From the UHGV virus genome UHGV-0126638: DNA of 23,813 bases, one strand, 5' to 3'. The first letter of the stretch is position 1. Every line of letters begins with the position of its first letter. The stretch comes from a virus. A program made the position numbers and the translations under genes. Positions 2,707-20,908 of the stretch are shown one piece after another. A model generated the notes under the pieces. It was not told the origin of the DNA. It did no database searches and saw nothing but the letters and a program-made list of their open reading frames with translations.

Positions 2707-2730
2707 GGTCACTCCAAGTGAACTTTTATC

Positions 2731-3053: not shown

Positions 3054-3085
3054 TTCGATTCTGAAATACATCAGAGGCATTGACC

Positions 3086-3595: not shown

Positions 3596-3602
3596 GGTGC
3601 TT

Positions 3603-3994: not shown

Positions 3995-4233
3995 CGATCT
4001 ATCAGTGTCTGTATCAGATGAGTGAATTCTTGTTGTTTAACCGAACCTAAAGGAAGTTTGTTTAATTCTTCGCGGAGGAGCTCAAAAAATGCTGATTGAT
4101 TTGCTGAGTCAGTTCGAAATAAGGAGTGGATCAGACCTGAAACAAGAATTCGTTGAACAGCAACCTCATCGCGAAGACTGGAGATCTCGTTTTCAAGTTG
4201 CTCTATACGCTCTCTTTCAACCGGGTTCAACAT
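3985..4233 (-). CDS. Hypothetical helical protein encoded antisense to the early operon (82 aa)
   Basis: ATG at 4233 with AGGA about 10 nt upstream on the minus strand. Translation is heptad-like and helical (ERERIEQLENEISSLRDEVAVQRIL...). Competes with plus-strand ORF 4089..4325. Confidence 0.35.
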   Translation of the reverse strand: MLNPVERERIEQLENEISSLRDEVAVQRILVSGLIHSLFRTDSANQSAFFELLREELNKLPLGSVKQQEFTHLIQTLIDRYR

Positions 4234-4325
4234 TGATGATTCCTTCTAGCTATCAATATGTTGGTAATGGATCATATCAAAAATTTTTTAGTAGATGTGT
4301 TGTGGGATGCATAAATGGCTATTGA
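4089..4325 (+). CDS. Hypothetical protein (78 aa), alternative to the antisense ORF 3985..4233
   Basis: ATG 4089 preceded by GGAGGAG at about 8 nt, same orientation as the operon. Composition is less convincing than the opposite-strand ORF. Confidence 0.3.
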   Translation: MLIDLLSQFEIRSGSDLKQEFVEQQPHREDWRSRFQVALYALFQPGSTLMIPSSYQYVGNGSYQKFFSRCVVGCINGY

Positions 4326-4656
4326 AGGCACTGCGGCGACTGTTCCATTAAGCCCCGGTGAACGCCTGAATGGACTTAATCATATTGCGGAGTTAAGAGC
4401 GAAAGTTTTTGGCCTGAATATTGAGTCAGAGCTTGAGCGGTTTATTAAAGATATGCGTAATCCACGGGATATTAATAGCGAACAAAATAAACGGGCACTG
4501 GCTGCCATATTCTTTATGGCAAAAATTCCAGCTGAACGTCATAGCATCAGCATTAATGAGCTGACCACTGACGAAAAGCGGGAGTTGATTAAAGCAATGA
4601 ATCATTTTCGTGCAGTGGTGAGCTTATTTCCCAGACGGCTAACCATGCCGAATTAA
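4315..4656 (+). CDS. Hypothetical phage early protein (113 aa)
   Basis: ORF in operon orientation; no family recognised; weak Shine-Dalgarno. Confidence 0.45.
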   Translation: MAIEGTAATVPLSPGERLNGLNHIAELRAKVFGLNIESELERFIKDMRNPRDINSEQNKRALAAIFFMAKIPAERHSISINELTTDEKRELIKAMNHFRAVVSLFPRRLTMPN

Positions 4657-4723
4657 CCAACTAATGAAATTAATGGCGTAAACCCGCCGGGCATCCCTTT
4701 ATCTAAATTCAGGAGAATTGATT

Positions 4724-4957
4724 ATGCGTAATATTGAAACCCTCACGACTAAAACCGGACCGGATGATGCAGGGCTTAATATTTTACTGACAGAGGCTCG
4801 TCTGGAAGAACGCCGGGCAAGAGCTGAAGCAATGGCAGCTCGCCTTGATAGCCTTGCGTGCCATATCACATCCCGCCAGCTAAACCACGTTGAAGCGGCT
4901 GAACTGCTGCGTGTGGCAGCTGAAGCAATCCAGAACGAAGCGCAGGAGATCCACTAA
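4724..4957 (+). CDS. Hypothetical phage early protein (77 aa)
   Basis: ATG 4724 with AGGAG 8 nt upstream; its stop overlaps the start of the next gene (TAATG), suggesting translational coupling. Confidence 0.5.
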   Translation: MRNIETLTTKTGPDDAGLNILLTEARLEERRARAEAMAARLDSLACHITSRQLNHVEAAELLRVAAEAIQNEAQEIH

Positions 4958-5184
4958 TGGCTGATGCAATGGATCTCGTACAGCAGCGCGTTGAAGAAGA
5001 ACGCCAGCGCCATATCCGTTCTGCCCGTGCCAAAACGCCGGGCGTGTCCCGCGTGCTTTGCATTGAGTGTGAAGCGCCAATTCCGCCAGCACGCCGCCGT
5101 GCCATTCCGGGTGTGCAGCTTTGCATTACCTGTCAGGAAATCGCAGAGCTGAAAGGCAAACATTACAACGGAGGTGCTGTATGA
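4957..5184 (+). CDS. TraR/DksA-family C4 zinc-finger protein
   Basis: 75 aa with the spacing CIECEAPIP...CITCQ (C-x2-C ... C-x2-C) typical of phage and plasmid TraR-like proteins; AGGAG Shine-Dalgarno; stop overlaps the dam start. Confidence 0.7.
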   Translation: MADAMDLVQQRVEEERQRHIRSARAKTPGVSRVLCIECEAPIPPARRRAIPGVQLCITCQEIAELKGKHYNGGAV

Positions 5185-6038
5185 GCACCATCCTGAAATG
5201 GGCGGGAAATAAAACTGCCATAATGTCAGAACTGAAAAAACATCTTCCTGCTGGCCCGCGACTGGTTGAACCTTTCGCGGGTTCCTGTGCTGTGATGATG
5301 GAGACGGATTATCCCAGTTATCTGGTTGCGGATATTAATCCTGATTTAATCAACCTCTATAAAAAGGTTGCCGCTGATTGTGAATCGTTTATATCTCGCG
5401 CCAGAGTTTTATTTGAGATCGCAAACAGGGAGGTGGCTTATTACAACATAAGGCAGGAGTTTAATTACTCAACTGAAATTACTGATTTCATGAAAGCGGT
5501 ATATTTCCTGTATCTCAATCGTCACGGTTACCGTGGTTTATGTCGCTATAACAAGAGCGGGCATTTCAATATTCCCTACGGTAATTATAAAAATCCGTAT
5601 TTCCCTGAAAAAGAAATTCGCGCATTTGCAGAGAAAGCCAAGCGGGCAACGTTTATCTGCGCGAGCTTTGATGAAACGCTGGCGATGCTGCAGGTGGGGG
5701 ATGTGGTGTATTGCGATCCGCCGTATGACGGTACGTTTTCCGGCTATCACACTGATGGTTTCACTGAAGATGACCAGTATCACCTGGCATCCGTTCTTGA
5801 ACATCGGTCATCAGAAGGACATCCGGTCATTGTTTCTAACAGTGACACATCCCTGATCCGTTCGCTGTATCGCAATTTTACTCACCACTACATCAAGGCA
5901 AAACGCAGCATCGGCGTAGCAGCTGGTGAGAGTAAATCTGCAACAGAAATCATCGCTGTTTCCGGGCCGCGCTGCTGGGTGGGATTTGATCCTTCGCGTG
6001 GAGTGGATAGTTCTGCCGTGTACGGAGTGCGTGCATGA
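5181..6038 (+). CDS. DNA adenine methyltransferase, Dam (GATC) family, phage-encoded
   Basis: Translation from ATG 5181 ([11 protein letters not shown]... FAGS ... DPPY) carries the N6-adenine MTase motifs: AdoMet-binding FxGxG-like region and catalytic DPPY. Start after GGAGG; ATGA overlap with gene A. Confidence 0.8.
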
Positions 6039-8449
6039 GCCATGCTGATATGAACAACTGCAGCGGCTTTAACGAGGTCGCCGCAGCATTCTCATGGAAC
6101 AGCCCGAAAAAGGCCATTAACCCTTATCTGGACCCGGCGGAAGTTGCGCCGGTTTCTGCGCTTTCAAACCTGATCACTCTGTACGCTGTCGATAACGAGC
6201 AGGAACAACTGCGCCGCGAGGCACTGAGTGATCAGGTCTGGGAGCGTTATTTCTTTAATGAATCCCGTGATCCTGTCCAGCGCGAAATGGAGCAGGATAA
6301 ACTTATTAGCCGGGCAAAGCTGGCGCATGAGCAGCAGCGTTTTAATCCAGATATGGTCATTCTGGCGGACGTCAATGCCCAGCCTTCCCATATCAGCAAG
6401 CCGCTGATGCAACGTATTGAATACTTCAGCAGCCTGGGCAGGCCAAAGGCTTATTCCCGCTATTTGCGTGAGACGATTAAGCCATGTCTGGAACGACTGG
6501 AGCATGTACGCGACTGTCAGCTATCCACTTCTTTTCGCTTTATGGCAAGCCATGAAGGGCTGGACGGCCTGCTGATCCTGCCTGAAATGAGTCAGGATCA
6601 GGTGAAGCGCCTGTCTACCCTTGTCGCCGCGCATATGAGCATGTGCCTTGATGCAGCTTGTGGTGATTTGTATGCCACCGATGACATTAAGCCAGAAGAA
6701 ATCCGCAAAACATGGGAAAAGGTGGCAGCGGAAACCCTGCGTCTGGATGTTATCCCGCCTGCGTTTGAGCAACTCCGTCGGAAAAGAAACCGCCGTAAAC
6801 CCGTGCCTTATGAACTCATTCCGGGTTCGCTGGCGCGTATGTTATGCGCCGACTGGTGGTATCGGAAATTATGGAAGATGCGTTGCGAATGGCGGGAAGA
6901 GCAGTTGCGTGCTGTTTGCCTGGTCAGCAAAAAAGCATCTCCCTATGTCAGCTATGAAGCCGTGATGCATAAACGTGAGCAGCGCCGTAAGTCGCTGGAG
7001 TTTTTCCGTTCTCATGAACTGGTGAACGAAGACGGCGACACGCTGGATATGGAAGACGTGGTAAACGCCAGCAGCAGCAACCCTGCACATCGCCGCAATG
7101 AGATGATGGCCTGTGTTAAAGGTCTGGAGCTTATCGCGGAAATGCGCGGTGACAGCGCCGTTTTCTACACCATCACCTGTCCGTCACGTTTCCATTCCAC
7201 GCTAAATAACGGCAGGCCCAACCCGACCTGGACAAATGCGACGGTAAGACAAAGCAGTGATTATCTGGTCGGTATGTTTGCTGCATTTCGTAAGGCGATG
7301 CACAAAGCCGGATTACGCTGGTATGGCGTGCGGGTGGCTGAGCCGCATCATGACGGTACAGTTCACTGGCACCTGTTGTGTTTTATGCGCAAAAAAGATC
7401 GCCGCGCCATTACTGCTTTGTTGCGTAAGTTTGCCATTCGTGAAGACCGCGAGGAGCTGGGTAATAACACGGAACCACGCTTTAAGTCTGAGCTGATAAA
7501 CCCGCGCAAAGGTACGCCAACAAGCTACATCGCGAAATACATCAGTAAGAACATTGACGGGCGTGGTCTGGCTGGCGAGATCAGCAAGGAAACGGGTAAA
7601 TCCCTGCGTGATAACGCTGAATACGTTAATGCCTGGGCGTCTCTGCATCGTGTTCAGCAATTCCGCTTCTTTGGCATTCCGGGGCGTCAGGCTTACCGTG
7701 AACTGCGATTGCTGGCTGGTCAGGCGGCAAGGCAACAGGGGGGCAAAAAAGCAGGTGCGCCGGTACTGGATAACCCGCGCCTTGATGCCATCCTGGCCGC
7801 TGCTGATGCTGGTTGTTTTGCCACCTACATCATGAAGCAGGGCGGCGTACTGGTTCCCCGCAAATATCACCTCATCAGAACCGCTTATGAAATCAACGAA
7901 GAGCCGACCGCCTATGGCGATCACGGTATTCGTATTTATGGCATCTGGTCACCCATTGCAGAGGGCAAGATCTGCACTCATGCGGTGAAGTGGAAAATGG
8001 TTCGTAAGGCCGTTGACATTCAGGAGGCGGCAGCCGACCAGGGCGCTTGCGCCCCTTGGACTCGTGGCAATAACTGTCCCCTTGCTGAAAATTTGAACCA
8101 ACAAGGGAAAGACAAATCAGCTGATGGGGATACCAGAACGGATATCACCCGCATGGATGACAAGGAGTTGCACGATTACCTGCACAGTATGAGCAAAAAA
8201 GAGCGCCGGGAACTGGCAGCAAGGTTACGCCTGGTTAAACCGAAACGGCGTAAAGACTACAAACAGCGAATTACAGATCATCAGCGACAGCAGCTCGTCT
8301 ATGAGCTGAAGTCCAGAGGATTTGATGGTAGCGAGAAAGAGGTCGATTTACTCCTTAGCGGCGGCAGTATTCCGTCAGGAGCAGGCCTGCGTATCTTCTA
8401 TCGGAACCAGCGTTTGCAGGAAGATGATAAGTGGCGGGATCTGTATTAA
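6035..8449 (+). CDS. A: P2 gpA-like replication initiation protein (rolling-circle endonuclease)
   Basis: 804-aa ORF downstream of the early genes; size and position match P2 A. An HxH-type motif (VHWHLL) and a Tyr-containing motif (YIAKYISK) fit a rolling-circle initiator. Confidence 0.8.
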
Positions 8450-8541
8450 TTACGCGGGTTAACAATTCGTGCTCTTAATAATACCAGGCATATCAGGCTG
8501 ATGAACGTAAAAAAACGTTTTACATCAGTAAGATTATTATA

Positions 8542-8561
8542 TACTGTGAATATAAACAGTG
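8542..8561. promoter_or_regulatory. LexA (SOS) box TACTGTGAATATAAACAGTG
   Basis: CTGT-N8-ACAG with an AT-rich centre, 17 of 20 matches to the LexA consensus TACTGTATATATATACAGTA, in an AT-rich promoter-like region about 40 bp upstream of ORF 8602. Confidence 0.6.
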
Positions 8562-8601
8562 GTTATGTATACAGTATTGCTTTGGTGTTATAGGAGGAAA
8601 G

Positions 8602-8790
8602 ATGCAGGACTATTTTTTGGAGTCTTTGAAGCTCCAGCGCATTGATTTTTTTCTTAAGCTTGTAGCGGCTAGTGAGTGTAGTGATGAAGAGAAGGGGCTG
8701 GCTTTGCAGTGGGTTTCTGAACTGACAGATGAACTCATGGCAAAAATCAGAAGCCACGAATACAACCGCTCAATGGATGTCATCAGCTGA
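8602..8790 (+). CDS. Small protein, possible N-terminal part of a Tum-like antirepressor (62 aa)
   Basis: ATG 8602 with AGGAGG 4 nt upstream, directly downstream of the LexA box. Together with the DinI-like ORF it spans 433 nt, about the size of phage 186 tum (~146 aa) as I recall it. Confidence 0.5.
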   Translation: MQDYFLESLKLQRIDFFLKLVAASECSDEEKGLALQWVSELTDELMAKIRSHEYNRSMDVIS

Positions 8791-8800
8791 GGTGACTTTT

Positions 8801-9034
8801 ATGCGCATTGAAATAATGATCGATAAAGAGCAGAAGATTAGCCAGTCTACCCTGGACGCCCTTGAATCCGAGCTTTACCGCAATCTGCGCCCCCTATATC
8901 CCAAAACGGTAATTCGTATCCGTAAAGGTAGCTCTAACGGTGTGGAACTGACCGGACTGCAACTGGATGAAGAAAGAAAACAAGTGATGAAAATTATGCA
9001 GAAGGTGTGGGAAGACGACAGCTGGCTGCATTGA
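8801..9034 (+). CDS. DinI-family protein (Tum C-terminal-like)
   Basis: Translation from ATG 8801 (MRIEIMIDKEQKISQSTLDALESELYRNLRPLYPK...KIMQKVWEDDSWLH) aligns by eye along its whole length with E. coli DinI. GAGGTGA Shine-Dalgarno 5 nt upstream. Confidence 0.75.
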   Translation: MRIEIMIDKEQKISQSTLDALESELYRNLRPLYPKTVIRIRKGSSNGVELTGLQLDEERKQVMKIMQKVWEDDSWLH

Positions 9035-9087
9035 TTTTGTCAATAGATGCTTGTTTTTAATACTTAAAAAGGGTTACATATGAGTGA

Positions 9088-9121
9088 GAGGTGATGTCAA
9101 TCAGATATCACCTCGTTTTTT
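9088..9121 (+). terminator. Rho-independent terminator after the DinI-like gene
   Basis: Inverted repeat GAGGTGAT...ATCACCTC followed by GTTTTTT. It overlaps the 5' extension of ORF 9091..9825, so that extension is unlikely to be coding. Confidence 0.5.
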
Positions 9122-9147
9122 GTCAAGAAAAGAATAATAGGCTAAAA

Positions 9148-9825
9148 ATGAAAATTAACCATATTGCGTTACCTATATCTCTTGCTGTAATCCTAACTGG
9201 TTGCGTGCCTCATGCTTCTAACCGAAATATCACAGCTATTGAAGTGGTGAAGCCTGCTATTGGGCAAAGTGCTACAGCCTACATGGGCGACCCCATCATA
9301 ACATCTGCTACTGGATATAAAACGGACGTACTAGAGCTTGGTGCGGCTAATGGTGCGCTATCTTCTATCTCTGCAGGTACATATTGCAGCGAAGGGAATG
9401 GAATTTACCGCAATCATCATAATTCTCAAGCTGTTGCGCTAAAAAATATCTATGGACAAATCGGCACCTATGTTGATTATGTAAGTTACGATGCTGCAAA
9501 AAATGAGATATCACCACCAAACGGCACTTCTTATACAGCCTCAGAAATTTCTATCAAGCGTGTTCCTGATGGGCTGTGTCGAGTGAGTAACTCATTGGTT
9601 AAGACTATCGAATACAATGGAAATGCAGGCGGTGTAATGAAGTTTACCTATCGTGAGTTTGCAAACGATATGGCTCGTGCAGCGTTTACAACAGATTTTT
9701 CTGTAGATTCGAAGGGAAGTGATGTTATCGCTTACAAAGGAGCCAAGTTCAAAGTGAACAAGGCTGATAACTCGTCTATTTCCTATACAATTATTTCTGG
9801 CTTTGACAAGGCTGTCACGTTCTAG
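9148..9825 (+). CDS. Lipoprotein of unknown function (moron); possible superinfection-exclusion or surface protein
   Basis: Translation from ATG 9148: MKINHIALPISLAVILTGC, a signal peptide with lipobox LTGC. The mature ~205 aa is rich in S, T, G, N and Y (beta-rich appearance). No homolog recalled. Confidence 0.65.
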   Translation: MKINHIALPISLAVILTGCVPHASNRNITAIEVVKPAIGQSATAYMGDPIITSATGYKTDVLELGAANGALSSISAGTYCSEGNGIYRNHHNSQAVALKNIYGQIGTYVDYVSYDAAKNEISPPNGTSYTASEISIKRVPDGLCRVSNSLVKTIEYNGNAGGVMKFTYREFANDMARAAFTTDFSVDSKGSDVIAYKGAKFKVNKADNSSISYTIISGFDKAVTF

Positions 9826-9929
9826 ATTTCACGCTTGCTGAGTATGTTACGATTTTGCACATTCTGCATAAACGCGCATGTCTATGCTGCATGAGATCGC
9901 ATGATCGTTTGAGGATCTTTTGTGTTAAG

Positions 9930-9954
9930 GCCCGCCAGTTCTGGCGGGCTTTTG
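9930..9954 (+). terminator. Rho-independent terminator downstream of the lipoprotein gene
   Basis: Perfect 9-bp stem GCCCGCCAG / CTGGCGGGC around TT, followed by TTTTG. Confidence 0.55.
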
Positions 9955-9998
9955 CGTAGATCATGCAGGTGCATGAAAACCACTACATAAAGCGGGCA

Positions 9999-10017
9999 GG
10001 CGTGGCGGGGATACGAG
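9999..10017. other. cos-like site (candidate cohesive-end sequence) GGCGTGGCGGGGATACGAG
   Basis: The first 13 nt match the 19-nt cohesive ends of phage 186 (GGCGTGGCGGGGAAAGCAT) and 12 of them P2 (GGCGAGGCGGGGAAAGCAC), as I recall them; the last 6 nt diverge. It is followed by CGCGCGC, as at the P2 left end. Confidence 0.4.
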
Positions 10018-10084
10018 CGCGCGCAACGGGTTGTCATTCAAACTCCAATGCTATAAAACTGTGTAATACAAACAACTAAAGTAG

Positions 10085-11839
10085 GTGGCCTCAGTGGAAC
10101 TGCAAGCAAATGCTCGAACCTTAACAAACGTGTTATCTGTAAATAAAAAATATATAGTCCCTAGATTCCAAAGAGAATATTCTTGGGGGAAGGAACAAGT
10201 AAGTGAACTTTGGCATGATATAGTTTCCAATATTCATTACCAGGAGGATGGGCAGTATCAATATGATGAGTATTTCATCGGTGCTCTCGTTTTGGTCGGG
10301 CAGGAAACTAGCTCTGAGCTGATGATTGTAGATGGTCAACAACGTCTTACGACTCTTACTATATTGTTATCAGCATTATGTGATAAATTTAAGTTGATAA
10401 ATGAGTTGGCTGTAGCTCAATCAATATATAATAATTATATATCTGGTATGGATGACGATGGCAGACCTTTTTTTAAATTAGTTAATGAAACTCCTAAGCC
10501 ATACTTTCAAAACAACATTCAGCATATTGATAAGAGAAATGAAGGACCGGAGTCCCTTGAAGAAAGAAACTTGCAATCTTCATATAATGATTTAACTGAG
10601 TATCTTTCAGAAGATAATCTTTGCCAGACATTAGGAGTAGATAGAGAGAAATTTATCTACTTGGAAGCGTTGAAGGCTGTGCGGGATCAAGTTCTACGGT
10701 ATCTGAAAGTGATTTATATTACAGTTAATGATGAAGATGAAGCTTATACAATCTTTGAAACTCTGAATGCTAGGGGATTAAACTTAAGTTATGTAGATCT
10801 TATAAAAAACAAATTATTTAAGAAACTGAATGGCACACATCCTGATGATGATGCAAAAACTAAATGGAATAAAATTAGGCAAATAATTGCTAGTCGTAAT
10901 GGTGTCGGTTCTATCGAGACATTTATCCGTCATTGGTGGGTGTCAAAATATTCTTATGTAAGTAGTGACACTCTTTATAAAGCTTTTCTGGATAAGTGGA
11001 AAAAAGGCGACATTGATGCTTCAGCGTTCATTGATGAGCTACTTTCAGATGCCGAGATATATGTGAAAATATCATCGCCTACAGAACAGGATTTTCCTGA
11101 ACTGGAAATGAAACCAGTTTATCGAGGTTTGCAGGCATTAAGGCTGTTTAACATATCTCAGAATAAACCATTTTTGTTATCTTTATTTAAGGCAAGAGCA
11201 AGAGGAACGCTAAAACTTGTTGATATGAATAATGCAGTGCTGTCAATTGAACGCTTTCATTTTATGTTTAATGCTATTTGTTCATTGCGACCATCAGGTA
11301 TTGAAAGTGCGTATGCTAAAGCTGCTAGGGCTTTAGTGGATGAAGGTTCTACTAAAGCTAGTAATAGACAAGTAATAAAGTCTTTGCTTGAAATGTTGGT
11401 GAAGAGAAAACCAGACATTAATATGTTTGTTGAAAAGTTTGTTATGCTTAAATTTTCAAATCAAGAGTTGAAAAATAAAAGGTTGATTCAGTACATTTTT
11501 AATAGACTTGAGTTACATCACATGAAAACGGGGGAGTATATGCCTGATTCATTAACATTAGAGCATATTCAGCCTCAGAGTGTGGGGGATTCTGAAGTAT
11601 ATAGCATGATAGGAAATTTATTACCACTTTCAAAAGAATTAAATGAAAAAGCTGGAAATAAGTCTGTTGTGGATAAGCTTGAAATTTATAAACAATCACA
11701 ATATGCGCTAGTTAAAATTTTTATTGATGAATTTGAAAATAAATATCAAGGAGAATGGACGCCCGATCATATGAGGTCAAGAGCTGCTGAACTAAGTATT
11801 TTATCGTATAATTCAGTATGGAAATTGGGGCGTGAGTAA
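10085..11839 (+). CDS. DUF262 (ParB-like, DGQQR) plus DUF1524 (His-Me/HNH-like) protein; GmrSD/BrxU/SspE-type candidate modification-dependent nuclease
   Basis: 584-aa ORF (GTG start at 10085; alternative GTG at 10094 after AGGTGG). N-terminal FQREYSW and DGQQR at codons 83-87 (nt 10331-10345) are DUF262 hallmarks; C-terminal LEHIQPQS...GNLLPLSKELNEKAGNKS is DUF1524-like. The gene is markedly AT-rich compared with flanking phage genes. Confidence 0.75.
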   Translation: MASVELQANARTLTNVLSVNKKYIVPRFQREYSWGKEQVSELWHDIVSNIHYQEDGQYQYDEYFIGALVLVGQETSSELMIVDGQQRLTTLTILLSALCDKFKLINELAVAQSIYNNYISGMDDDGRPFFKLVNETPKPYFQNNIQHIDKRNEGPESLEERNLQSSYNDLTEYLSEDNLCQTLGVDREKFIYLEALKAVRDQVLRYLKVIYITVNDEDEAYTIFETLNARGLNLSYVDLIKNKLFKKLNGTHPDDDAKTKWNKIRQIIASRNGVGSIETFIRHWWVSKYSYVSSDTLYKAFLDKWKKGDIDASAFIDELLSDAEIYVKISSPTEQDFPELEMKPVYRGLQALRLFNISQNKPFLLSLFKARARGTLKLVDMNNAVLSIERFHFMFNAICSLRPSGIESAYAKAARALVDEGSTKASNRQVIKSLLEMLVKRKPDINMFVEKFVMLKFSNQELKNKRLIQYIFNRLELHHMKTGEYMPDSLTLEHIQPQSVGDSEVYSMIGNLLPLSKELNEKAGNKSVVDKLEIYKQSQYALVKIFIDEFENKYQGEWTPDHMRSRAAELSILSYNSVWKLGRE

Positions 11840-11866
11840 ATGCCGGGGGGGGGCCCAGCATATTTA

Positions 11867-12916
11867 TCAAAAAGAATCGTTTGTGAAATTTAGGGAGTAG
11901 GCATCAAAGCGTATTGCTTCTTCGCCTAGCCAATAGTTAAGTTCTTGTAGCTGTTTCTGCAGGGGCATCAGTTCGTTGCGGACAAAAACACGACTAGCCT
12001 TCTCCACATCACCAAAGCCCCCAACATTATTAGGCATTATCCCCATCATTTGCGGCGGCACACGATGCGCCGCCATCATGTCGTCCCGGCTCACGTTCTT
12101 GATATTCAGGAACTCATCCTTCGCCGCCACTTCTGACAACGGGATAATCTGAAGCCCATCCTTTTTGCCGTTAGGCGAGTACATAAACAGGTTACGGAAG
12201 TTACCAGGACCTTTGGCACTTTTCATTGCGTTGCGGAGGTTGTTCACATCCTCCTGGTTCTGCGCGGCGTCGGTCATGTACATGATGAAGCCCGCATGGC
12301 TGCCGTTGATGTAATACTTCCGGCGGAACAGCGTGGCGGACTCGTTGAGCAGGGCTGACGGAATGGCAGAAAGATAACCGGGCAGGCCGTAGATCTCCTG
12401 GTTGATGTCCGGCTCCATCAGATGAAAAATGCTGCCTTTCGTGAACTGATACGGCTGGGTTGTCATACCGTATTGCACAAACCAGTAGGTATCCAGGTCT
12501 AACCCGCGTCGGGTGTATTTTGCCAGAGCAGGCTCAAGGGCTATAACTTCACCGAAGCGGTTCGTGCGTTTCTCCAGGTAGGCGTTACCAAAAACCAGAT
12601 AGTCCTGTACAAAACGCGAAAAAGCCTGCTGGCTGAGCAGCGGGTGAGGGATGTAGGTGCTGGTCAGAATGTTGCACTTTACTGCAATCGGGGAACTATG
12701 ATGAACGGCAGCGCGGAAGGTGCGCGCCAGTCCGTCAAAGCTGACGGGCGGCTCATACCAGCGGTCCATCTGTACGCATTCCACATAATCCAGCAGTTCT
12801 CGGCGGTCCAGAACAGGAACGGGATCGCCGAAGCTGAATGCTTCGGCTGTAGTTTGACTTTTAAGCTGGATCTGTTTCGTCGCCGCAGCGCGGTTCTTCT
12901 TACTCTTTCCCATCAA
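11867..12916 (-). CDS. Q: Portal protein, P2 gpQ family
   Basis: 349 aa, leftward, overlapping the start of the terminase gene as in P2. N-terminus MMGKSKKNRAAATK... and size match P2 Q as I recall it. Confidence 0.88.
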   Translation of the reverse strand: MMGKSKKNRAAATKQIQLKSQTTAEAFSFGDPVPVLDRRELLDYVECVQMDRWYEPPVSFDGLARTFRAAVHHSSPIAVKCNILTSTYIPHPLLSQQAFSRFVQDYLVFGNAYLEKRTNRFGEVIALEPALAKYTRRGLDLDTYWFVQYGMTTQPYQFTKGSIFHLMEPDINQEIYGLPGYLSAIPSALLNESATLFRRKYYINGSHAGFIMYMTDAAQNQEDVNNLRNAMKSAKGPGNFRNLFMYSPNGKKDGLQIIPLSEVAAKDEFLNIKNVSRDDMMAAHRVPPQMMGIMPNNVGGFGDVEKASRVFVRNELMPLQKQLQELNYWLGEEAIRFDAYSLNFTNDSF

Positions 12917-14679
12917 AAAATCTCCACAATATTGCTGGTATTGGCGGATTCGCCCTGCAGCGGTTCGTTAAACAGTGCGTGCATCGTTGCCCAGGCCAGA
13001 TCGGCGTGGCTGGCTTCTTCGCTGCGGCTGGCTTCATAGGTCGGGCGGTTGCCACTGGCGGTGGTGGCGCGACGGATCGCCATAAAGGACTGCGCTATGT
13101 CGGTGTGTCCGGCGTCAAACTCCAGACGGCGGTGGCTGATAATGTCGTAGGCCTTGAGTACCAGGGCGTTTTTAACGTTGGGGTTGTAGACAAACTCCCG
13201 GACGGCAGGAAAAAACGCTTTCACGTTCTCGTAAACCCCGTGACCAACGCCGGTTGAGTCGATACCGATATAGGTCACGTTGTACTGTTCGGTCAGTTTT
13301 TTGATGGCGTCAGCCTGGGCGCGGAAGTCCATTCCGCGCCACTGGTGACGCTCAAGAATGCGGAACTTACCGCCCGGCACGACTGGCGGCGCCACCACCA
13401 CGCATCCGGCGCTGTCGCCGTTCTGCGTACCTTTCGCCGGGTCATATCCGATCCACACTTCGCGCCAGCCAAACGGGCGCAGGGCCAGTGCATGAAAGTC
13501 GGTCCAGACTTCCCAACTGTCCACCATGCACGCCTGCAGCTCGCTGAGCGGGAACACAGACGCGAGATCGTCCACGAACTCACACATCAGCAGGTTCTGG
13601 TATTCGTCCGGGCTGTACTCCATGCGCAACTGGTCGAGGTCGAACAGGTTACAGCCGCCGCGCACCGCATCTTCCACAGTGACTATCTGGCGGTACTGCC
13701 CGTCTGCGCACAGCAGGCCGGGGGCCAGATTGCTGTGGGACAGGTCGATGTCCACCTTATCGGCTTTGTTGCGCCCTCGGTTGAACAGCGCACCGGACCA
13801 GAACGGATAAGCACTGTGTGTCAGGCTGGATGGCGTGGAAAAATAGGTTTGTCGCCATTTTTTGTGAATAGCCATACCGGAAGCCACTTTGCGCAGCTCC
13901 TGGAATTTCGGTATCCAGAAATATTCATCCAGATACAGGTTGCCGTGGTAACTCTGGGCCGTGCGGGCATTGGTGCCGAGGAAGTACAGCGTGGCCCCGT
14001 TAGGAAGCACCATCGGATCGCCTTTCAGCTCCACCTCCACTTCTTTGGCGAAGTCGATGATGTACTGCTTAAAGACGTGGGCCTGAGCCTTGCTGGCGGA
14101 AAGGAAAATCTGGTTACGTCCGGTTAGCAGGGCGTCAATCAGGGCTTCACGGGCAAAATAGAAGGTCGCGCCGATCTGGCGTGACTTCAGCAGGTTGCGG
14201 ATGCGGTTGGTTTTTCCGGCTTCCCACCAGTGGCGCTGGTAGTTGAACATGGAGGAATGGAAGATTTCTTCCAGCTTCTCAATCTGTTCATCGGTGAAAA
14301 CGTTCTTTTCCGGCTGACGGCGCGGGCCTTTGTTGCGGTTGGCGACGTTAGGGTTTAAGTCGGCTTCGTTGCCGCCATTGTTAAACTTGCCGATCCGCGC
14401 ATGGCGCTCCGACTGGCGCGCCAGCAGGTCAATCTCTTTGAAATCTTTCCCTTCTTTGTGCTCCTTCATAATGAGCTGGCAGTAGCGTGCGGCGGTGGTG
14501 AGCTGCATCTGATCTAGCGGCCCATAGTCACCCCACTTGTCGCGTTTTTTCCAGCTGTGAACGGTTGCAACTTTCTCGCCCAGCATTTCAGCAATGCGGG
14601 CTACGCGGTATCCCTGAAAGTACAGCAGCATGGCCTGCCGACGGGGATCGAGATCTGCGGGTGTCAGTGTGGTGTTCAT
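12913..14679 (-). CDS. P: Terminase large (ATPase) subunit, P2 gpP family
   Basis: 588 aa, leftward, divergent from O as in P2. A Walker A-like motif (LLKSRQIGAT) is present; size is close to P2 gpP. Confidence 0.88.
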   Translation of the reverse strand: MNTTLTPADLDPRRQAMLLYFQGYRVARIAEMLGEKVATVHSWKKRDKWGDYGPLDQMQLTTAARYCQLIMKEHKEGKDFKEIDLLARQSERHARIGKFNNGGNEADLNPNVANRNKGPRRQPEKNVFTDEQIEKLEEIFHSSMFNYQRHWWEAGKTNRIRNLLKSRQIGATFYFAREALIDALLTGRNQIFLSASKAQAHVFKQYIIDFAKEVEVELKGDPMVLPNGATLYFLGTNARTAQSYHGNLYLDEYFWIPKFQELRKVASGMAIHKKWRQTYFSTPSSLTHSAYPFWSGALFNRGRNKADKVDIDLSHSNLAPGLLCADGQYRQIVTVEDAVRGGCNLFDLDQLRMEYSPDEYQNLLMCEFVDDLASVFPLSELQACMVDSWEVWTDFHALALRPFGWREVWIGYDPAKGTQNGDSAGCVVVAPPVVPGGKFRILERHQWRGMDFRAQADAIKKLTEQYNVTYIGIDSTGVGHGVYENVKAFFPAVREFVYNPNVKNALVLKAYDIISHRRLEFDAGHTDIAQSFMAIRRATTASGNRPTYEASRSEEASHADLAWATMHALFNEPLQGESANTSNIVEIF

Positions 14680-14725
14680 GGCACAAACCTACAGCCTTGA
14701 ATGAAGGCTTTCCCCGCCTGCGGTT

Positions 14726-14743
14726 TGTGTGGTTGTCGGTACA
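14726..14743. promoter_or_regulatory. TGT-N12-ACA dyad in the P/O divergent region; candidate Ogr-dependent late promoter element
   Basis: TGTGTGGTTGTCGGTACA seen directly. The dyad type and spacing match the activator site of P2 late promoters; it sits about 80 bp upstream of the O start codon. Confidence 0.4.
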
Positions 14744-14821
14744 AATACCGCGCATTGTTTCACTGCCCCCATCACCGCAACCATAAGGCTCCAGTAAGTT
14801 TTTTCTAACGGAGCACGGCTC

Positions 14822-15655
14822 ATGACAGTGAAAGCAAAGCGTTTTCGCATCGGGGTGGAAGGTGCCACCACCGACGGACGCGAAATCCAGCGTGAATGGC
14901 TGGAACAGATGGCAGCCAGCTACAACCCGGCGGTGTATACCGCGCTGATTAACCTTGAGCACATCAAGTCTTATCTGCCGGACAGCACCTTTAACCGCTA
15001 CGGCAAGGTGACGGCGCTGTTTGCTGAAGAAATCACGGAAGGTCCGCTGGCAGGCAAGATGGCGCTGTATGCCGACGTTGAGCCAACGGAGTCCCTGGTG
15101 GAACTGGTGAAAAAAGGCCAGAAATTATTCACCTCTATGGAAGTCAGCCCGAAGTTCGCTGATACGGGCAAAGCCTACCTGGTCGGCCTGGCTGCTACTG
15201 ATGACCCTGCCAGTCTGGGTACGGAAATGCTGACATTCAGCGCCAGTGCAGCCCATAACCCGCTGGCAAACCGCAAGCAGAATCCTGCCAATCTCTTTAC
15301 CGCTGCAGAGGAAACGGTGATCGAACTGGAAGAAATCCAGGACGACAAACCGTCCCTGTTTGCCCGCGTCACGGCGCTGTTTACCAAAAAAGAGCAGTCC
15401 GATGACGCCCGGTTCTCTGATGTGCATAAGGCCGTGGAGCTGGTCGCCACTGAGCAGCAGAACCTGAGTGCACGCACCGAAAAATCCCTGTCTGAGCAGG
15501 AAGAACGCCTGTCTGAGCTGGAGACTGCCCTGCAGGCACAGCAAACCGCCTTTAACGAACTGGTGGACAAGCTGAGTCATGAAGACAGTCGCCAGGACTA
15601 CCGCCAGCGTGCAACAGGCGGTAACGCCCCCGCTGACACTCTGACCAATTGCTGA
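14822..15655 (+). CDS. O: Capsid scaffolding protein, P2 gpO family
   Basis: 277 aa, first gene of the rightward late operon, with a C-terminal coiled-coil-like region; position and size match P2 O. Confidence 0.85.
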   Translation: MTVKAKRFRIGVEGATTDGREIQREWLEQMAASYNPAVYTALINLEHIKSYLPDSTFNRYGKVTALFAEEITEGPLAGKMALYADVEPTESLVELVKKGQKLFTSMEVSPKFADTGKAYLVGLAATDDPASLGTEMLTFSASAAHNPLANRKQNPANLFTAAEETVIELEEIQDDKPSLFARVTALFTKKEQSDDARFSDVHKAVELVATEQQNLSARTEKSLSEQEERLSELETALQAQQTAFNELVDKLSHEDSRQDYRQRATGGNAPADTLTNC

Positions 15656-15671
15656 TGGAGCACAAAACCCG

Positions 15672-16730
15672 ATGAAGAAGAATACCCGCTTTGCTTTTAA
15701 CGCTTACCTGCAGCAGCTGGCGCGTCTGAACGGTGTGGCAGTTGAAGAACTGTCCAGCAAGTTCACCGTGGAGCCGTCTGTGCAGCAGACGCTGGAAGAC
15801 CAGATCCAGCAGTCCGCCGCTTTCCTGACGCTGATTAACGTCACGCCAGTGACTGAGCAGTCCGGTCAGCTGCTGGGGCTGGGTGTTGGCAGCACCACTG
15901 CCGGAACCACTGACACCACCGCGAAAGAGCGTGAACCTGTCGATCCGACGCTGATGGTCGATGTGGAATATAAATGCGAGCAGACCAACTTTGACACGGT
16001 GCTGACCTACGCGAAGCTGGACCTGTGGGCGAAGTTTAAGGATTTCCAGGTGCGTATCCGTGACGCCATCGTGAAACGTCAGGCACTGGACCGCATCATG
16101 ATCGGCTTTAACGGCGTGAAGCGTGCGAAAACCTCCAACCGTAGTGAAAACCCGCTGCTGCAGGATGTGAACAAAGGCTGGCTGCAGAAAATCCGTGAGG
16201 ATGCACCGGATCACGTCATGGGCAGCACCACCACGGGCGGCGAAACCACACCGGGTGCGGTGAAAGTCGGGAAAGGTGGCGAATATGCCAACCTGGACGC
16301 TGTGGTGATGGATGCGGTCAATGAGCTTATCGACGTGGTCTACCAGGACGATGACGATCTGGTGGTGATTTGCGGTCGTGAACTGCTGTCTGACAAGTAT
16401 TTCCCGCTGGTCAACAAAGAGCAGGAAAACAGTGAAAAATTGGCAGCCGATATGATTATCAGTCAGAAACGCATGGGCGGTCTGCAGGCCGTGCGTGCGC
16501 CGTTCTTCCCGCCGAATGCGCTGCTGATCACCCGTCTGGATAACTTGTCCATCTACTGGCAGGAAGACACCCGCCGCCGTTCAGTTATCGACAACCCGAA
16601 ACGTGACCGGATTGAAAATTTTGAATCCGTTAACGAAGCCTACGTGGTTGAGGACTACCGCTGCGCCGCACTGGTGGAAAACATCCAGATTGGCGACTTC
16701 AGCGCCGCCGCAGCAGAAACCGGAGCGTAA
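15672..16730 (+). CDS. N: Major capsid protein, P2 gpN family
   Basis: 352 aa; the N-terminus MKKNTRFAFNAYLQQLARLNGV... and many internal segments (KFTVEPSV, GFNGVKRA, GKGGEYANLDA, ISQKRMG, NLSIYWQ, VVEDY) parallel P2 gpN as I recall it. Confidence 0.9.
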   Translation: MKKNTRFAFNAYLQQLARLNGVAVEELSSKFTVEPSVQQTLEDQIQQSAAFLTLINVTPVTEQSGQLLGLGVGSTTAGTTDTTAKEREPVDPTLMVDVEYKCEQTNFDTVLTYAKLDLWAKFKDFQVRIRDAIVKRQALDRIMIGFNGVKRAKTSNRSENPLLQDVNKGWLQKIREDAPDHVMGSTTTGGETTPGAVKVGKGGEYANLDAVVMDAVNELIDVVYQDDDDLVVICGRELLSDKYFPLVNKEQENSEKLAADMIISQKRMGGLQAVRAPFFPPNALLITRLDNLSIYWQEDTRRRSVIDNPKRDRIENFESVNEAYVVEDYRCAALVENIQIGDFSAAAAETGA

Positions 16731-16733
16731 TTC

Positions 16734-17384
16734 ATGAGCCTGAGTCCCGCACGGCAGCATCGCCTGCGCGTTCAGGCTGAACAGGCCGCTCGCGAGGGTG
16801 GCAGTGTTCGCCACGCGTCGGGCTATGACCTGATGCTGCTGCAACTGGCGGAAGACCGCCGCCGTCTCAAGGGCGTTCAGTCCACGGTCAAAAAAGCGGA
16901 AATCAAAGTGGAGCTGCTGCCGAAGTACGCCGCCTGGGCAGAGGGTGTCCTGGCTGCCGGAGGCGCTCAACAGGATGACGTGCTGATGTACGTGATGCTG
17001 TGGCGCATTGATGCCGGAGATTATGCCGGGGCGCTGGAGATCGGGCGTCATGCCCTGCGTCATGGCTGGGTGATGCCGCTGGGTAACCGCAACGTGCAGA
17101 CCGTGCTGGCAGAGGAAATGGCAGATGCAGCGCAGAGCGCAATGCTTGCCGCAACCGGCTTTGATGCCGATCTGTTGCTGCAGACGCTGGAGCTGACAGA
17201 CGGTCTGGATATGCCGGACCAGTCACGGGCGCGTCTGCATAAAGCGATTGGCGCTGTCCTGAGTGAAAGCAATCCGGCTTCCGCCCTTAATCATCTCAAC
17301 CATGCGTTACAGCTCGATCCCCGCTGTGGCGTGAAAAAAGACAAACAGCAGCTGGAGCGCAGACTGCGCAATGACAGCCGCTGA
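16734..17384 (+). CDS. M: Terminase small (endonuclease) subunit, P2 gpM family
   Basis: 216 aa immediately after N; conserved segments (LRHASGYDLML, GAQQDDVLMYVMLWRIDAGDYAGALEIGRHAL) resemble P2 gpM. Confidence 0.82.
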   Translation: MSLSPARQHRLRVQAEQAAREGGSVRHASGYDLMLLQLAEDRRRLKGVQSTVKKAEIKVELLPKYAAWAEGVLAAGGAQQDDVLMYVMLWRIDAGDYAGALEIGRHALRHGWVMPLGNRNVQTVLAEEMADAAQSAMLAATGFDADLLLQTLELTDGLDMPDQSRARLHKAIGAVLSESNPASALNHLNHALQLDPRCGVKKDKQQLERRLRNDSR

Positions 17385-17479: not shown

Positions 17480-17761
17480 ATGAAGTTTGTTGCGCCAGAA
17501 CAGGCACCGGAACAGGCGGAAATCATCAGAAATACGCCGTTCTGGCCTGATGTGGACCTGTCGGAGTTTCGCAGTGTCATGCGCACTGACGGCACGGTGA
17601 CGCAGCCGCGTTTAAAGCAGGTTGCGCTGTCGGCAATTTCGGAGGTTAACGCAGAGCTGTATGAGTTTCGCAGACGCCAGCAGATGCTGGGGTATGCGTC
17701 GCTGGCTGAGGTTCCGGCGGAACAGCTGGACGGGAAAAGTGAGCGCATTTCCGAAGCCTGA
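17480..17761 (+). pseudogene. L: Head completion protein gpL, C-terminally truncated
   Basis: Start at ATG 17480 with AGGAGAAAG upstream; NTPFWPDVDL...AELYEFR...LAEVPAEQLDG parallels the P2 gpL N-terminal half. The ORF ends at about 93 aa against about 169 aa for P2 gpL as I recall it. Confidence 0.6.
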
Positions 17762-17952
17762 CTGACAGTATTGATACCAGCACCCCAATGGGTCGTTTCT
17801 TTTTTCATGTCATGGGGGCCCTGGCTGAAATGGAACGCGAACTGATAGTTGAACGTACCATGGCAGGGCTGGCTGCAGCTCGTGCCAAAGGCAGAGTAGG
17901 TGGACGCCGTCCTAAGTTGACCACCGAACAGTGGGCACAGATTGGGCGTTTA
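17746..17952 (+). pseudogene. Internal fragment of a Hin/Gin/Pin-type serine DNA invertase gene (about 69 codons)
   Basis: The frame translating HFRSLTDSIDTSTPMGRFFFHVMGALAEMERELIVERTMAGLAAARAKGRVGGRRPKLTTEQWAQIGRL matches the central-to-C-terminal region of Hin-family invertases nearly residue for residue. The catalytic N-terminus and the C-terminal HTH are both absent. Confidence 0.7.
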
Positions 17953-19020
17953 TCCGGTTTACGTGCTGTTGCTGTGATGTTTATGAATCCTCTGGCGGTA
18001 CTGCGCGGTGGACTGGCCGCCGCAGGCACGGTGCTGCGAGTACTGGCATCTGGTCCACTGGCGATGCTGCGCGTTGCCCTGTATGCCATATCTGGTCTGT
18101 TAGGTGCTCTGCTCAGTCCGATAGGTCTTGTGGTTACTGCACTGGCGGGCGTGGCGCTGGTTGTTTGGAAATACTGGCAACCCATCACCGCATTTCTCGG
18201 TGGCGTGGTGGAAGGATTCAAAGCTGCGGCAGGTCCCATCAGTGCAGCGTTCGAACCGCTTAAGCCCGTGTTCCAGTGGATTGGCGACAAAGTGCAGGCG
18301 CTGTGGGGCTGGTTTACTGATCTGCTGACGCCCGTTAAGTCGACCTCTGCCGAACTGCAGAGCGCAGCGGCAATGGGGCGACGATTCGGGGAGGCACTGG
18401 CAGAAGGGCTGAATATGGTCATGCATCCGCTGGACTCCCTGAAATCCGGCGTTTCCTGGTTGCTGGAGAAACTCGGCATTGTCAGTAAAGAGGCTGCAAA
18501 GGCGAAACTGCCGGAAAGCGTGACGCGTCAGCAACCTGCGACGGTGAATGCAGACGGTAAAGTGATGATGCCATCGGGTGATTTTCCGTCATGGGGATAT
18601 GGCTTTGCGGGGATGTATGACAGCGGCGGCTATATCCCGCGCGGGCAGTTTGGCATCGTCGGTGAAAACGGGCCGGAAATTGTTAACGGCCCGGCAAACG
18701 TGACCAGCCGGAGAAATACAGCTGCACTGGCTGCCGTTGTCGCCGGAATGATGGGTGTTGCTGCCGCGCCAGCAGAGCTTCCACCGTTGCATCCTTTGGC
18801 GCTTCCCGCAAAAGGCGGTGAAGCGATGGTGAGTCGTGCAGCTACTGTGCCGCCCATTTACCGGATTGAAGCACCGACGCAGATCATCATCCAGACACAG
18901 CCAGGACAAAGTGCGCAGGATATTGCGCGGGAGGTGGCCCGCCAGCTTGATGAACGTGAACGCAGGCTGAAGGCAAAAGCCAGGAGTAACTACAGCGATC
19001 AGGGGGGATACGACGCATGA
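17953..19020 (+). pseudogene. T: C-terminal portion of the tail tape-measure gene (gpT-like), fused in frame to the invertase fragment
   Basis: Continues the same ORF (17788..19020) into Ala/Gly/Leu-rich sequence typical of tape-measure proteins and ends overlapping the gpU start. The N-terminal part of T and all upstream tail genes are absent. Confidence 0.6.
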
Positions 19021-19502
19021 TGATGGTGCTGGGATTGTACGTGTTTATGCTGCGCACCGTGCCGTATCAGGAGCTGCAGTATCAACGCAGCTGGCGACAT
19101 GCGGCAAACAGCCGGGTAAACCGACGTCCGTCCACGCAGTTTCTGGGACCGGACAACGACATGCTGACGCTTTCCGGTGTTCTTATGCCGGAGATAACAG
19201 GTGGCAGGCTGTCGTTGCTGGCACTGGAGCAGATGGCAGAACAGGGGAAAGCATGGCCCCTGATTGAAGGCAGTGGCACGATTTATGGCATGTATGTGAT
19301 TGAGGGACTGAATCAGACTAAAACGGAGTTTTTCCGCGACGGTATGCCGCGCCGGATTGAGTTCACCCTGTCGCTCAAACGGGTGGATGAATCCCTGTCC
19401 GATATATTCGGTGATCTCAGTGCGCAACTGAATAATCTGCAGGACACAGCAACGTCTGCCTTAAGCGATATCAGTAAAACGGTGGGAGGGCTGCTGTCAT
19501 GA
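19017..19502 (+). CDS. U: Tail protein, P2 gpU family
   Basis: 161 aa, between the tape-measure remnant and D; size and order as in P2. Confidence 0.8.
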   Translation: MMMVLGLYVFMLRTVPYQELQYQRSWRHAANSRVNRRPSTQFLGPDNDMLTLSGVLMPEITGGRLSLLALEQMAEQGKAWPLIEGSGTIYGMYVIEGLNQTKTEFFRDGMPRRIEFTLSLKRVDESLSDIFGDLSAQLNNLQDTATSALSDISKTVGGLLS

Positions 19503-20599
19503 ATTTCAGCTCTGAACTGCTTAACAAAGGCAACAAAACTCCCGCATTCAGCATCAGTATTGAGGGCAGGGATATCACCACTGTGCTGGATAACCGCCTG
19601 ATGAGTTTGACGCTGACGGACAATCGGGGCTTTGAAGCGGACCAGCTTGATCTGGAGCTGGACGACGCCGACGGAAAAATCGTGCTGCCGCGCCGTGGTG
19701 CGGTTATTACGCTGGCGCTGGGCTGGAAGGGGCAGCCGCTTTTCCCGAAAGGGGCATTCACGGTGGACGAGATTGAACACACTGGCGCACCGGACCGCCT
19801 GACTATCCGGGCGCGAAGTGCTGATTTTCGTGAAACGCTGAATACCCGCCGTGAAAAGTCGTGGCACAAGACCACCGTCGGGGAAGTGGTGAAGGAAATA
19901 GCTGTGCGGCACAAACTGAAGATGGCATTGGGTAAAGACCTGTCAGATAAACCCGTGGAACATATAGACCAGACCAATGAGAGTGACGGCAGTTTTCTGA
20001 TGCGGCTGGCGCGCCAGTACGGTGCTATTGCGTCGGTGAAAAATGGCAATCTGTTATTCATCCGGCAGGGACAGGGTAAAAGCGCCAGCGGTAAACCACT
20101 ACCGGTTATCACTATCACACGTAAGGACGGCGACAGTCACCGCTTTACCCTGGCAGATCGCGGAGCCTACACGGGCGTAATTGCCAGCTGGTTGCATACC
20201 CGCGAACCCGCGAAGAATGAAAGCACCACGGTGAAGCGTAAGCGCAGGACTAAGAAGCAGAAGAAAGAGCCGGAAGCGAAGCAGGGCGATTACCTGGTGG
20301 GTACAGATGAAAACGTGCTGGTACTTAATCGCACCTATGCCAACCGGAGCAACGCCGAACGGGCGGCGAAAATGCAGTGGGAACGCCTGCAACGCGGCGT
20401 TGCGTCATTCTCGCTACAACTGGCAGAAGGTCGGGCAGATCTCTACACGGAAATGCCAGTGAAAGTCAGTGGCTTTAAACAGCCGATAGATGATGCGGAA
20501 TGGACCATTACGACTCTGACGCATACCGTCAGCCCCGATAACGGTTTTACAACCAGTCTGGAGCTTGAAGTGAGGATTGATGATTTCGAAATGGAATGA
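19499..20599 (+). CDS. D: Tail protein, P2 gpD family
   Basis: 366 aa, immediately upstream of ogr; size and order as in P2. Confidence 0.8.
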   Translation: MNFSSELLNKGNKTPAFSISIEGRDITTVLDNRLMSLTLTDNRGFEADQLDLELDDADGKIVLPRRGAVITLALGWKGQPLFPKGAFTVDEIEHTGAPDRLTIRARSADFRETLNTRREKSWHKTTVGEVVKEIAVRHKLKMALGKDLSDKPVEHIDQTNESDGSFLMRLARQYGAIASVKNGNLLFIRQGQGKSASGKPLPVITITRKDGDSHRFTLADRGAYTGVIASWLHTREPAKNESTTVKRKRRTKKQKKEPEAKQGDYLVGTDENVLVLNRTYANRSNAERAAKMQWERLQRGVASFSLQLAEGRADLYTEMPVKVSGFKQPIDDAEWTITTLTHTVSPDNGFTTSLELEVRIDDFEME

Positions 20600-20689
20600 T
20601 TCTTCGCAATGGAGAACTTTTAAGTTTGCAAAATGGAATAATGCGGTATCATTATTGTGAATTTAGCAAAAATGGGGAGAACTCGAAAA

Positions 20690-20908
20690 ATGATGATTTG
20701 CCCACTGTGTGGAAGTGCCGCCCATACTCGCAGCAGTTTTCAGGTATCTTCATTGACCAAAGAACGTTACAACCAGTGCCAGAACATTAACTGCAGCCAT
20801 ACTTTTGTTACCCATGAAACTTTTGTTCGTTCGATTGCAACGCCAAAAGAGTCAAATCCGGTTCAGCCGCATCCAATGAAATCAGGACAGGTGGCGCTCT
20901 CTCTTTGA
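20690..20908 (+). CDS. ogr: Ogr/Delta-family zinc-finger late transcription activator
   Basis: Translation from ATG 20690 (MMICPLCGSAAHTRSSFQVSSLTKERYNQCQNINCSHTFVTHETF...) has the C-x2-C ... C-x4-C pattern and strongly resembles P2 Ogr (72 aa). GGGGAGA Shine-Dalgarno upstream. Confidence 0.88.
   Translation: MMICPLCGSAAHTRSSFQVSSLTKERYNQCQNINCSHTFVTHETFVRSIATPKESNPVQPHPMKSGQVALSL

Follow-up and report, generated by a model that had tools for sequence, protein, structure and literature searches.

How did a prophage come to lose everything between its head-completion gene and the last third of its tape-measure gene, and how did a piece of a DNA invertase gene come to lie at the joint? We addressed this question for UHGV virus genome UHGV-0126638, a stretch of 23,813 nucleotides (the window), in which a truncated head-completion gene (gpL'), an internal fragment of a tail-fibre serine invertase gene and the C-terminal part of the tape-measure gene T follow one another on the + strand between positions 17480 and 19020. 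The window is a segment of the Escherichia coli chromosome, parts of which are matched in 5,424 of 5,426 complete E. coli genomes with flanks that are ~99.5% identical, and it carries a P2/186-like prophage inserted between rcdA and ybjL. Very probably, this prophage was made defective by two illegitimate, homology-independent deletions that were assisted by microhomology.

Two junctions and the invertase fragment between them

As a reference we used L003 (strain mip270_04), an intact annotated prophage at the same rcdA/ybjL site as the window; a second intact annotated relative at this site is L017 (strain WL7562). The gene order of the intact relatives is int, CI, CII, fil, dam, A, cargo, Q, P, O, N, M, L, X, holin, lysozyme, LysA/B/C, R, S, V, W, J, I, H, G, inverted G'/H', invertase, FI, FII, E, E', T, U, D and ogr. 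Breakpoints were mapped to the single base by blastn of the window against L003, which gave three colinear blocks with flanks 97.9–99.5% identical, and by three-way junction views. A first-pass annotation of the window had described a deletion scar, in which gpL stops after about 93 aa and a Hin/Gin/Pin-type invertase stretch starting at ~17746 runs in frame into tape-measure sequence at ~17953 within the open reading frame (ORF) 17788..19020. It had proposed alignment with intact P2-like prophages as the check and colinearity with an intact phage gene as the contrary outcome. The alignment showed two clean breakpoints in place of such colinearity, and each element of the description was found, at positions that differ from the proposed ones by 1–3 nt.

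The left arm of the window is colinear with L003 up to 17749, which corresponds to L003 position 11364 and to codon 90 of gpL. The gene gpL' (17480–17761) has 93 codons and a TGA stop; codons 1–90 match the intact gpL of 154 aa, and the last three residues, S-E-A, and the stop result from reading invertase DNA in another frame. The Pfam profile Phage_GPL is matched in gpL' over positions 1–75 of 139 only, i.e. the full domain expected of a functional gpL is absent. Junction 1 lies at 17747–17749, where the 3-nt microhomology ATT is common to gpL codon 90 and invertase codon 86. In comparison with L003, 8,639 bp are lost at this junction. The span that is missing relative to both L003 and L017 extends from gpL codon 91 through invertase codon 85 and includes the C-terminus of gpL, the genes X, holin, lysozyme, LysA/B/C, R, S, V, W, J, I, H and G, the invertible segment and the N-terminus of the invertase.

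The retained invertase fragment is 206 nt long (17747–17952, equivalent to L003 20001–20206) and consists of two bases of codon 86 followed by codons 87–154 of a gene of 188 codons. It is annotated as 'recombinase family protein' in intact P2-like prophages, and is identical to L003 at 205 of 206 nt (99.5%) and to the related remnant L011 (Logan ERR972134) at 206 of 206. A protein search with the full-length relative matched 'DNA invertase Pin-like' and 'Fin' clusters. This intact enzyme has a Resolvase domain at residues 3–135 (profile positions 2–144) and an HTH_7 domain at residues 138–181, as in the Hin/Gin/Cin/Pin invertases, which go with invertible tail-fibre segments (Mu G, P1 C, e14 P). 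The remnant spans residues 86–154, i.e. the helix E region and the arm, and the catalytic serine (about residue 9–10) is not included in it, as the fragment begins with codon 86.

The right arm starts at 17950, equivalent to L003 24642 and to codon 670 of T, where the window continues T in frame; from there to its end the window is 99.5% identical to L003. Junction 2 (17950–17952) has the 3-nt microhomology TTA, common to invertase Leu154 and T Leu670, and 4,438 bp are lost there in comparison with L003. Relative to L003 and L017, the absent span runs from invertase codon 155 through T codon 669 and takes with it the C-terminus of the invertase, FI, FII, E/E' and codons 1–669, or two-thirds, of T. 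What is left of T is its C-terminal third, comprising 355 codons (671–1025; 17953–19020) and a stop that overlaps the start of U. With T residues 670–1025 kept, the PhageMin_Tail domain (residues 246–457 of 1025) is absent and the tape measure is far from full length. Both junctions are free of filler, and the three-way views revealed no further similarity between the parental sequences. The two losses, 8,639 and 4,438 bp, amount to about 13 kb, and the comparison with L003 and L017 supports the earlier statement that the lysis, baseplate, fibre, sheath and tube genes between L and T are missing.

The invertase frame, the T frame and the ORF 17788–19020 coincide. The ORF encodes a chimera of 410 aa in which invertase residues 100–154 are fused in frame to T residues 671–1025; its first ATG (17788) is invertase Met100, and the frame is closed upstream by a TGA at 17740–17742. 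In the chimera, Pfam detected the Resolvase profile over positions 109–144 of 145 only, and HTH_7, of which the fragment retains the part up to residue 154, was undetected, indicating that neither the catalytic serine nor the DNA-binding domain is present in the remnant. What survives of the invertase, 206 bp of DNA, is predicted to be an inert island, with no inversion system present in the window.

The exact 410-aa chimera was found on 10 contigs of up to 279 kb with the same gene context, from ENA gut metagenome, JGI and Logan assemblies. Over 16,026 bp, two of these loci match the window at every position, and another shows 2 differences from it within 13,017 bp. The exact 93-aa gpL' protein was found on 11 contigs and adjoins the chimera on each contig long enough to tell (one contig is 1.7 kb). 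Neither junction occurs in any of the 5,426 complete E. coli genomes, in which the best matches to 17730–17965 cover the invertase part only. The scar is genuine and belongs to a single lineage that is nearly clonal.

Proposed origin and order of the two deletions

Both junctions have the properties of microhomology-mediated illegitimate deletions: colinear flanks, joints (ATT and TTA) within the 1–9 nt range and no inserted DNA. By our own calculation, an overlap of at least 3 nt is expected at ~5% of random junctions. The occurrence of 3-nt microhomology twice, the absence of filler and the kilobase losses fit RecA-independent illegitimate recombination. End-joining in E. coli is RecBCD-dependent and uses 1–9 nt of microhomology, with 1–3 nt in the repair of Cas9 breaks (bioRxiv 10.1101/605246). 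The alternative end-joining model of Chayot et al., as presented in the same source, likewise has kilobase deletions with microhomology of 1–3(–9) nt and no filler, whereas it does not predict the joining of identical ends to many partners that is described below. Joining in the window may have followed such a RecA-independent route, for example RecBCD/LigA alternative end-joining, or may have resulted from replication template switching.

The order of the deletions is suggested by L011, the closest relative found, whose head genes are 99.885% identical to those of the window, compared with ~97.5–97.9% for L003. L011 shares the invertase breakpoint (L003 20206) and keeps R, S, V, W, J, I, H, G, the invertible segment and the N-terminus of the invertase. 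Its T-side end is codon 717, whereas that of the window is 671, and the retained T' is identical at 929 of 930 nt. The presence of the invertase-154 junction without junction 1 in L011 points to two successive deletions, of which the one between the invertase and T came first. Accordingly ordered, invertase codon 154 would have been joined to T codon 670 via TTA, and gpL codon 90 would then have been joined to invertase codon 86 via ATT in the lineage of the window. A precedent for the different T-side ends is found in L013 (J111–T671) and L014/L015 (J111–T717), which have the same J breakpoint to the base (GCTGT^ATCC and GCTGT^ATCT, respectively, where ^ marks the break) and also share an upstream 381-aa insertion. 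This fits a putative derivation of the T717 form from the T671 form through a secondary loss of 138 bp between TATCCGGT and TATCTGGT. The in-frame 138-bp loss of T codons 671–716 is apparently secondary in several chimera lineages (J111, invertase154, sheath118 and CII104); it is placed by L013:4395 versus L014:10332 and L015:3166, and by window 17953–18090 versus L011:10255.

On balance, we favour with some reserve a history in which an invertase154–T671 ancestor gave rise to the window through the gpL90–invertase86 deletion and to L011 through the 138-bp loss and a deletion from N to LysB/LysC. Several points weigh against this picture of two successive, simple deletions. No isolate carrying junction 2 (invertase154–T671) alone was found, and L011, which is only a putative descendant of such an ancestor, could represent an independent event at a recurrent breakpoint. 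In L012 and L016, invertase-154/155 junctions are present on another allele of the invertase, whose differences come within 30 nt of the joint, indicating that the invertase-154 end was used in two or more independent events. The junction-2 ends are found again joined to other partners, which shows that the choice of break sites is non-random, and a plain model of random breakage plus microhomology fails to explain it. Moreover, end-joining and template switching cannot be told apart by sequence.

The two junctions could also have arisen together, in a single replication-based rearrangement with two template switches (of the microhomology-mediated break-induced replication, MMBIR, or fork-stalling type) leading from gpL to the 206 nt of the invertase and on to T. 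Both junctions have the same small microhomology of 3 nt and flank a short retained island, and discontinuous deletions with short retained pieces are described as the signature of MMBIR-type events (PMC2621351). In addition, gpL' and the chimera always co-occur, and a search with the exact gpL' protein found no intermediate with junction 1 only. However, the invertase-154 breakpoint of L011, without junction 1, is most simply explained by descent from an ancestor with junction 2 only, and independent remnants (L001, L002 and L018, see below) show that single deletions into T are common. We therefore regard a single event as unlikely, and two successive deletions as the better explanation.

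The participation of the invertase itself had to be considered, as the first-pass annotation had proposed that the ancestor had an invertible tail-fibre segment and that the deletion involved the invertase gene or its recombination sites. The ancestral segment is corroborated by the intact relatives at the same att site, in which the invertase gene adjoins an H-G / G'-H' invertible fibre cassette with 27-bp inverted sites. In L003, these 27-nt inverted crossover sites bound the segment at 17773–17799 and 19663–19689, with AA/TT cores at 17785–17786 and 19675–19676. The invertase gene was indeed involved, with deletion ends at codons 86 and 154; the recombination sites were not used and were themselves deleted. 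In favour of recombination by the serine invertase between a crossover site and pseudo-sites, with deletion of the DNA between them, ends do fall inside the invertase gene; several recurrent break sites also hold (C/G)GTT(T)AC, a sequence with a loose likeness to the inner half-site of the crossover sites (CGTTTA / GGTTT). Nevertheless, this explanation is very improbable. None of the four breakpoints (L003 11364, 20001, 20206 and 24642) coincides with a crossover site or its core, and the break-flanking sequences have neither dyad symmetry nor full half-sites. Where (C/G)GTT(T)AC is present, the break comes after GTT(T), whereas cleavage by a serine invertase would have to come before it. Unlike the Hin/Gin/Cin/Pin systems, the window has neither an invertible segment nor crossover sites (0 matches when 3 mismatches were allowed, and no core of the AAACCNNGGTTT type close to the scar). 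The location of the breakpoints away from the crossover sites argues for illegitimate recombination and not for catalysis by the invertase. The scar is another instance of ordinary prophage decay by deletion, and a relic of a fibre-inversion system. Adjacent deletion mediated by an insertion sequence (IS) was rejected, as there is no IS end and gpL, invertase and T DNA together make up the whole of the junction sequences.

We judge the 410-aa invertase'-T' ORF to be a by-product of the deletions, i.e. a probable pseudogene fusion and not a gene. The alternative, that it is a domesticated functional gene held by selection, draws on an intact, in-frame ORF that is identical on 10 contigs and whose stop overlaps the start of U, which would permit translational coupling. 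It is nonetheless hardly credible. The contigs are essentially clonal (0–2 differences in 13–16 kb), which makes their identity uninformative on selection; the sequence preceding ATG 17788 (ACCAGCACCCCA) contains no Shine-Dalgarno motif, and no promoter-like site was found near the ORF. The ORF has no complete domain of either parent, and dozens of other in-frame X'-T' chimeras have unrelated N-termini, as expected if one-third of random deletions are in frame. The defining features tested for invertase, gpL and tape-measure function are all missing, and both the chimera and gpL' belong to no functional family. Annotators should be warned that this 'Resolvase'-containing ORF of 410 aa is likely a pseudogene fusion. 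Two related remnants show further signs of chimeras as decaying pseudogenes: a frameshift near the end of T' in L012:10001-11875 fuses an invertase'-T' chimera to U to give a 624-aa ORF, and in L011:9794-11185 the N-terminal part of the invertase is split into ORFs of 41 and 394 aa.

Finally, an assembly or chimeric-contig artefact, for which the absence of both junctions from all complete E. coli genomes might be cited, can be dismissed with near certainty, given that the same double junction was recovered from three repositories with different samples and assemblers, that 3-nt microhomology is unable to cause de Bruijn mis-joins, and that analogous scars exist in complete genomes (L001, L002 and L018).

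Recurrent break sites in P2/186-like prophages

Nearly all matches to the chimera in a protein search were themselves chimeric, with the C-terminus of T preceded in frame by an N-terminal piece of CII, A, O, N, M, L, lysozyme, V, W, J, H, G, invertase, sheath or T itself. The sample consists of in-frame fusions ranked by similarity to the queries. The chimeras were mapped on the L003 proteome, the junctions mostly at codon level and against this one reference, and the cluster counts given here do not equal numbers of independent events. Codon-level estimates of microhomology from the reference alone were too imprecise and were not used. The T-side ends were strongly clustered: T601–603 was joined to ~7 distinct left partners, T615–620 to ~5, T632 to 4–5, T670–673 (the site used in the window) to 8, T717 to at least 12 and T719–721 to at least 10, compared with ~13 events in total in the 43 codons of the stretch T674–716. 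Left ends recurred as well. CII104 was joined to T616, T671 and T717; J111 to T671 and T717; sheath118 to T670, T717 and T719; invertase154 to T671, T701 and T717; K155/156 to T602 and T632; and V159/160 to T601, T632 and T713. The recurrent ends in the window are T codon 670/671 (17950–17952) and invertase codon 154 (17952). In L003, the positions are 11522–11523 for gpL143, 12426 for K155, 20206 for invertase154, 23611 for T326, 24437 for T602, 24527 for T632, 24644 for T671, 24782 for T717 and 24794 for T721. Recurrence of the ends of junction 1 (L90 and invertase86) was not seen in this material.

Mapping of fetched loci at the DNA level confirmed the recurrence and added cases from complete E. 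coli genomes, as well as an N12–K155 junction in L014. L001 (NZ_CP020835.1) has an FI18–T348 junction at the ssrA site, and at the ybjL site L002 (NZ_CP042893.1) has holin33–T614 (Y33) and L018 (NZ_CP158143.1) has gpL144–T326. These three deletions into T are independent, with 2–5 nt of microhomology, and are annotated only as partial tape-measure pseudogenes. K155 and T326 each served as the left end in one event and as the right end in another. In a sampling of complete genomes for truncated T genes, 3 partial hits were among the matches listed out of 48, too few to be used.

A cleaner test of recurrence is the search with intact gpL, this being a small gene. Six of the eight deletion-type chimeras that break within L117–154 do so at L143 (after ...AISRV), with LysA45, W30, I3, the E'/T overlap, D301 and one unassigned sequence as partners. 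With T326, T685 and T717 added, the partners of gpL143 number at least 9; in one of these cases the gpL allele is only 88% identical. The search with the full invertase protein returned mostly full-length invertases and one chimera with another break, at residue 161. Secondary deletions, such as that from 671 to 717, seem to explain part of the grid of ends and partners, and not the multiplicity of partners per site. A natural T allele without codons 671–716, which would merge T671 and T717, had no match in complete genomes when a synthetic junction query was used, and 'GLSGLLGALL' was not among 120 matches.

At most of the recurrent sites, the break could have fallen at a T^A step. These include gpL143 (GGGT^AC), T602 and V159 (CGTT^AC), invertase154, L97 and T673 (GTTT^AC), T701 (AGT^AC), T671, T717 and FI118 (T^ATC, which is GATT^ATCC in T671 and CCAT^ATC in T717) and K155, O267 and A167 (T^AAC). 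In the ±12 nt around 18 of the recurrent sites, GTTA/TAAC is found 7 times versus 1.9 expected, and AACGCC/GGCGTT 5 times versus 0.42 expected (uncorrected p = 4e-5). Folds of 70-nt DNA at 13 recurrent sites gave hairpins of background stability, with an inconsistent position of the break. Neither IS nor other extra DNA was present at any junction examined, the recurrent sites are distinct from the invertase crossover sites, and no Chi sites were seen by eye in the flanks of the hot spots, for which no formal scan was made.

The recurrent break sites are a real side finding. It is possible, and we put it forward tentatively, that both ends of junction 2 are drawn from a discrete group of such sites, used by a site-preferring process of breakage or rejoining rather than by random breakage. 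Candidate processes would be topoisomerase-mediated illegitimate recombination at the recurrent sites, nicking at pseudo-sites by gpA, the HUH replication protein of the phage, or template switching at a strong replication pause. In the nested 'adjacent deletions' that IS elements produce, one end is fixed and the other is variable. The population pattern described here is similar, in that one fixed end (gpL codon 143 or T codon 717) is combined with many partners; in contrast, the fixed ends here are ordinary coding sequence with no IS. In the literature we found no description of recurrent deletion endpoints in P2-like prophages. The finding that the same few break sites are re-used in many strains is of more interest than the scar, as prophage 'grounding' would be partly deterministic and open to experimental study if a specific mechanism lies behind these sites.

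The rest of the prophage and its cargo genes

Outside the scar, the prophage ORFs (691–17384 and 19017–20908) are equal in length to those of the intact relatives. The head and packaging module on the 5' side of the scar (11867–17384) retains Q (349 aa), P (588 aa), O (277 aa), N (352 aa) and M (216 aa). On the 3' side (19017–20599, + strand), the tail genes U (161 aa) and D (366 aa) are of intact length and are followed by ogr, likewise unchanged, and by attR/ybjL; A, with 804 aa, is also full length. From these lengths, the decay of the prophage looks recent, or the head and early genes may still be under constraint.

Defective prophages accumulate deletions (PMC6379469), and the window resembles the cryptic or 'grounded' E. 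coli prophages reviewed there in having internal deletions of morphogenesis and lysis genes and pseudogene fusions at the scars, with integrase, immunity, replication and some structural genes kept. Here, by comparison, an intact relative at the same att site allowed both scars to be resolved to the base, the genes that remain are full length, and the scar keeps a 206-bp island between two deletions. The scar itself carries little weight: it records the way in which a P2/186-like prophage was disabled in one E. coli lineage, where it lost its lysis and tail genes and kept immunity, replication and head genes and a defence-type cargo locus.

This cargo (9091–11839, + strand) sits between a DinI-like gene and the portal gene Q, and consists of a 244-aa ORF without Pfam hit (called as 225 aa in L004) and of a 584-aa DUF262/GmrSD_N+GmrSD_C protein. 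It looks like a putative anti-phage locus of the type IV restriction-like kind, intact in a tail-less prophage. Related remnants have different defence-type genes at the same cargo position or next to CI, namely ThsB_TIR (L014:835-2183), a 585-aa RVT_1 reverse transcriptase (L016:8119-9876), SNIPE/T5orf172 (L012:1-479) and an AAA_15/AAA_21 ATPase (L016:1-334).

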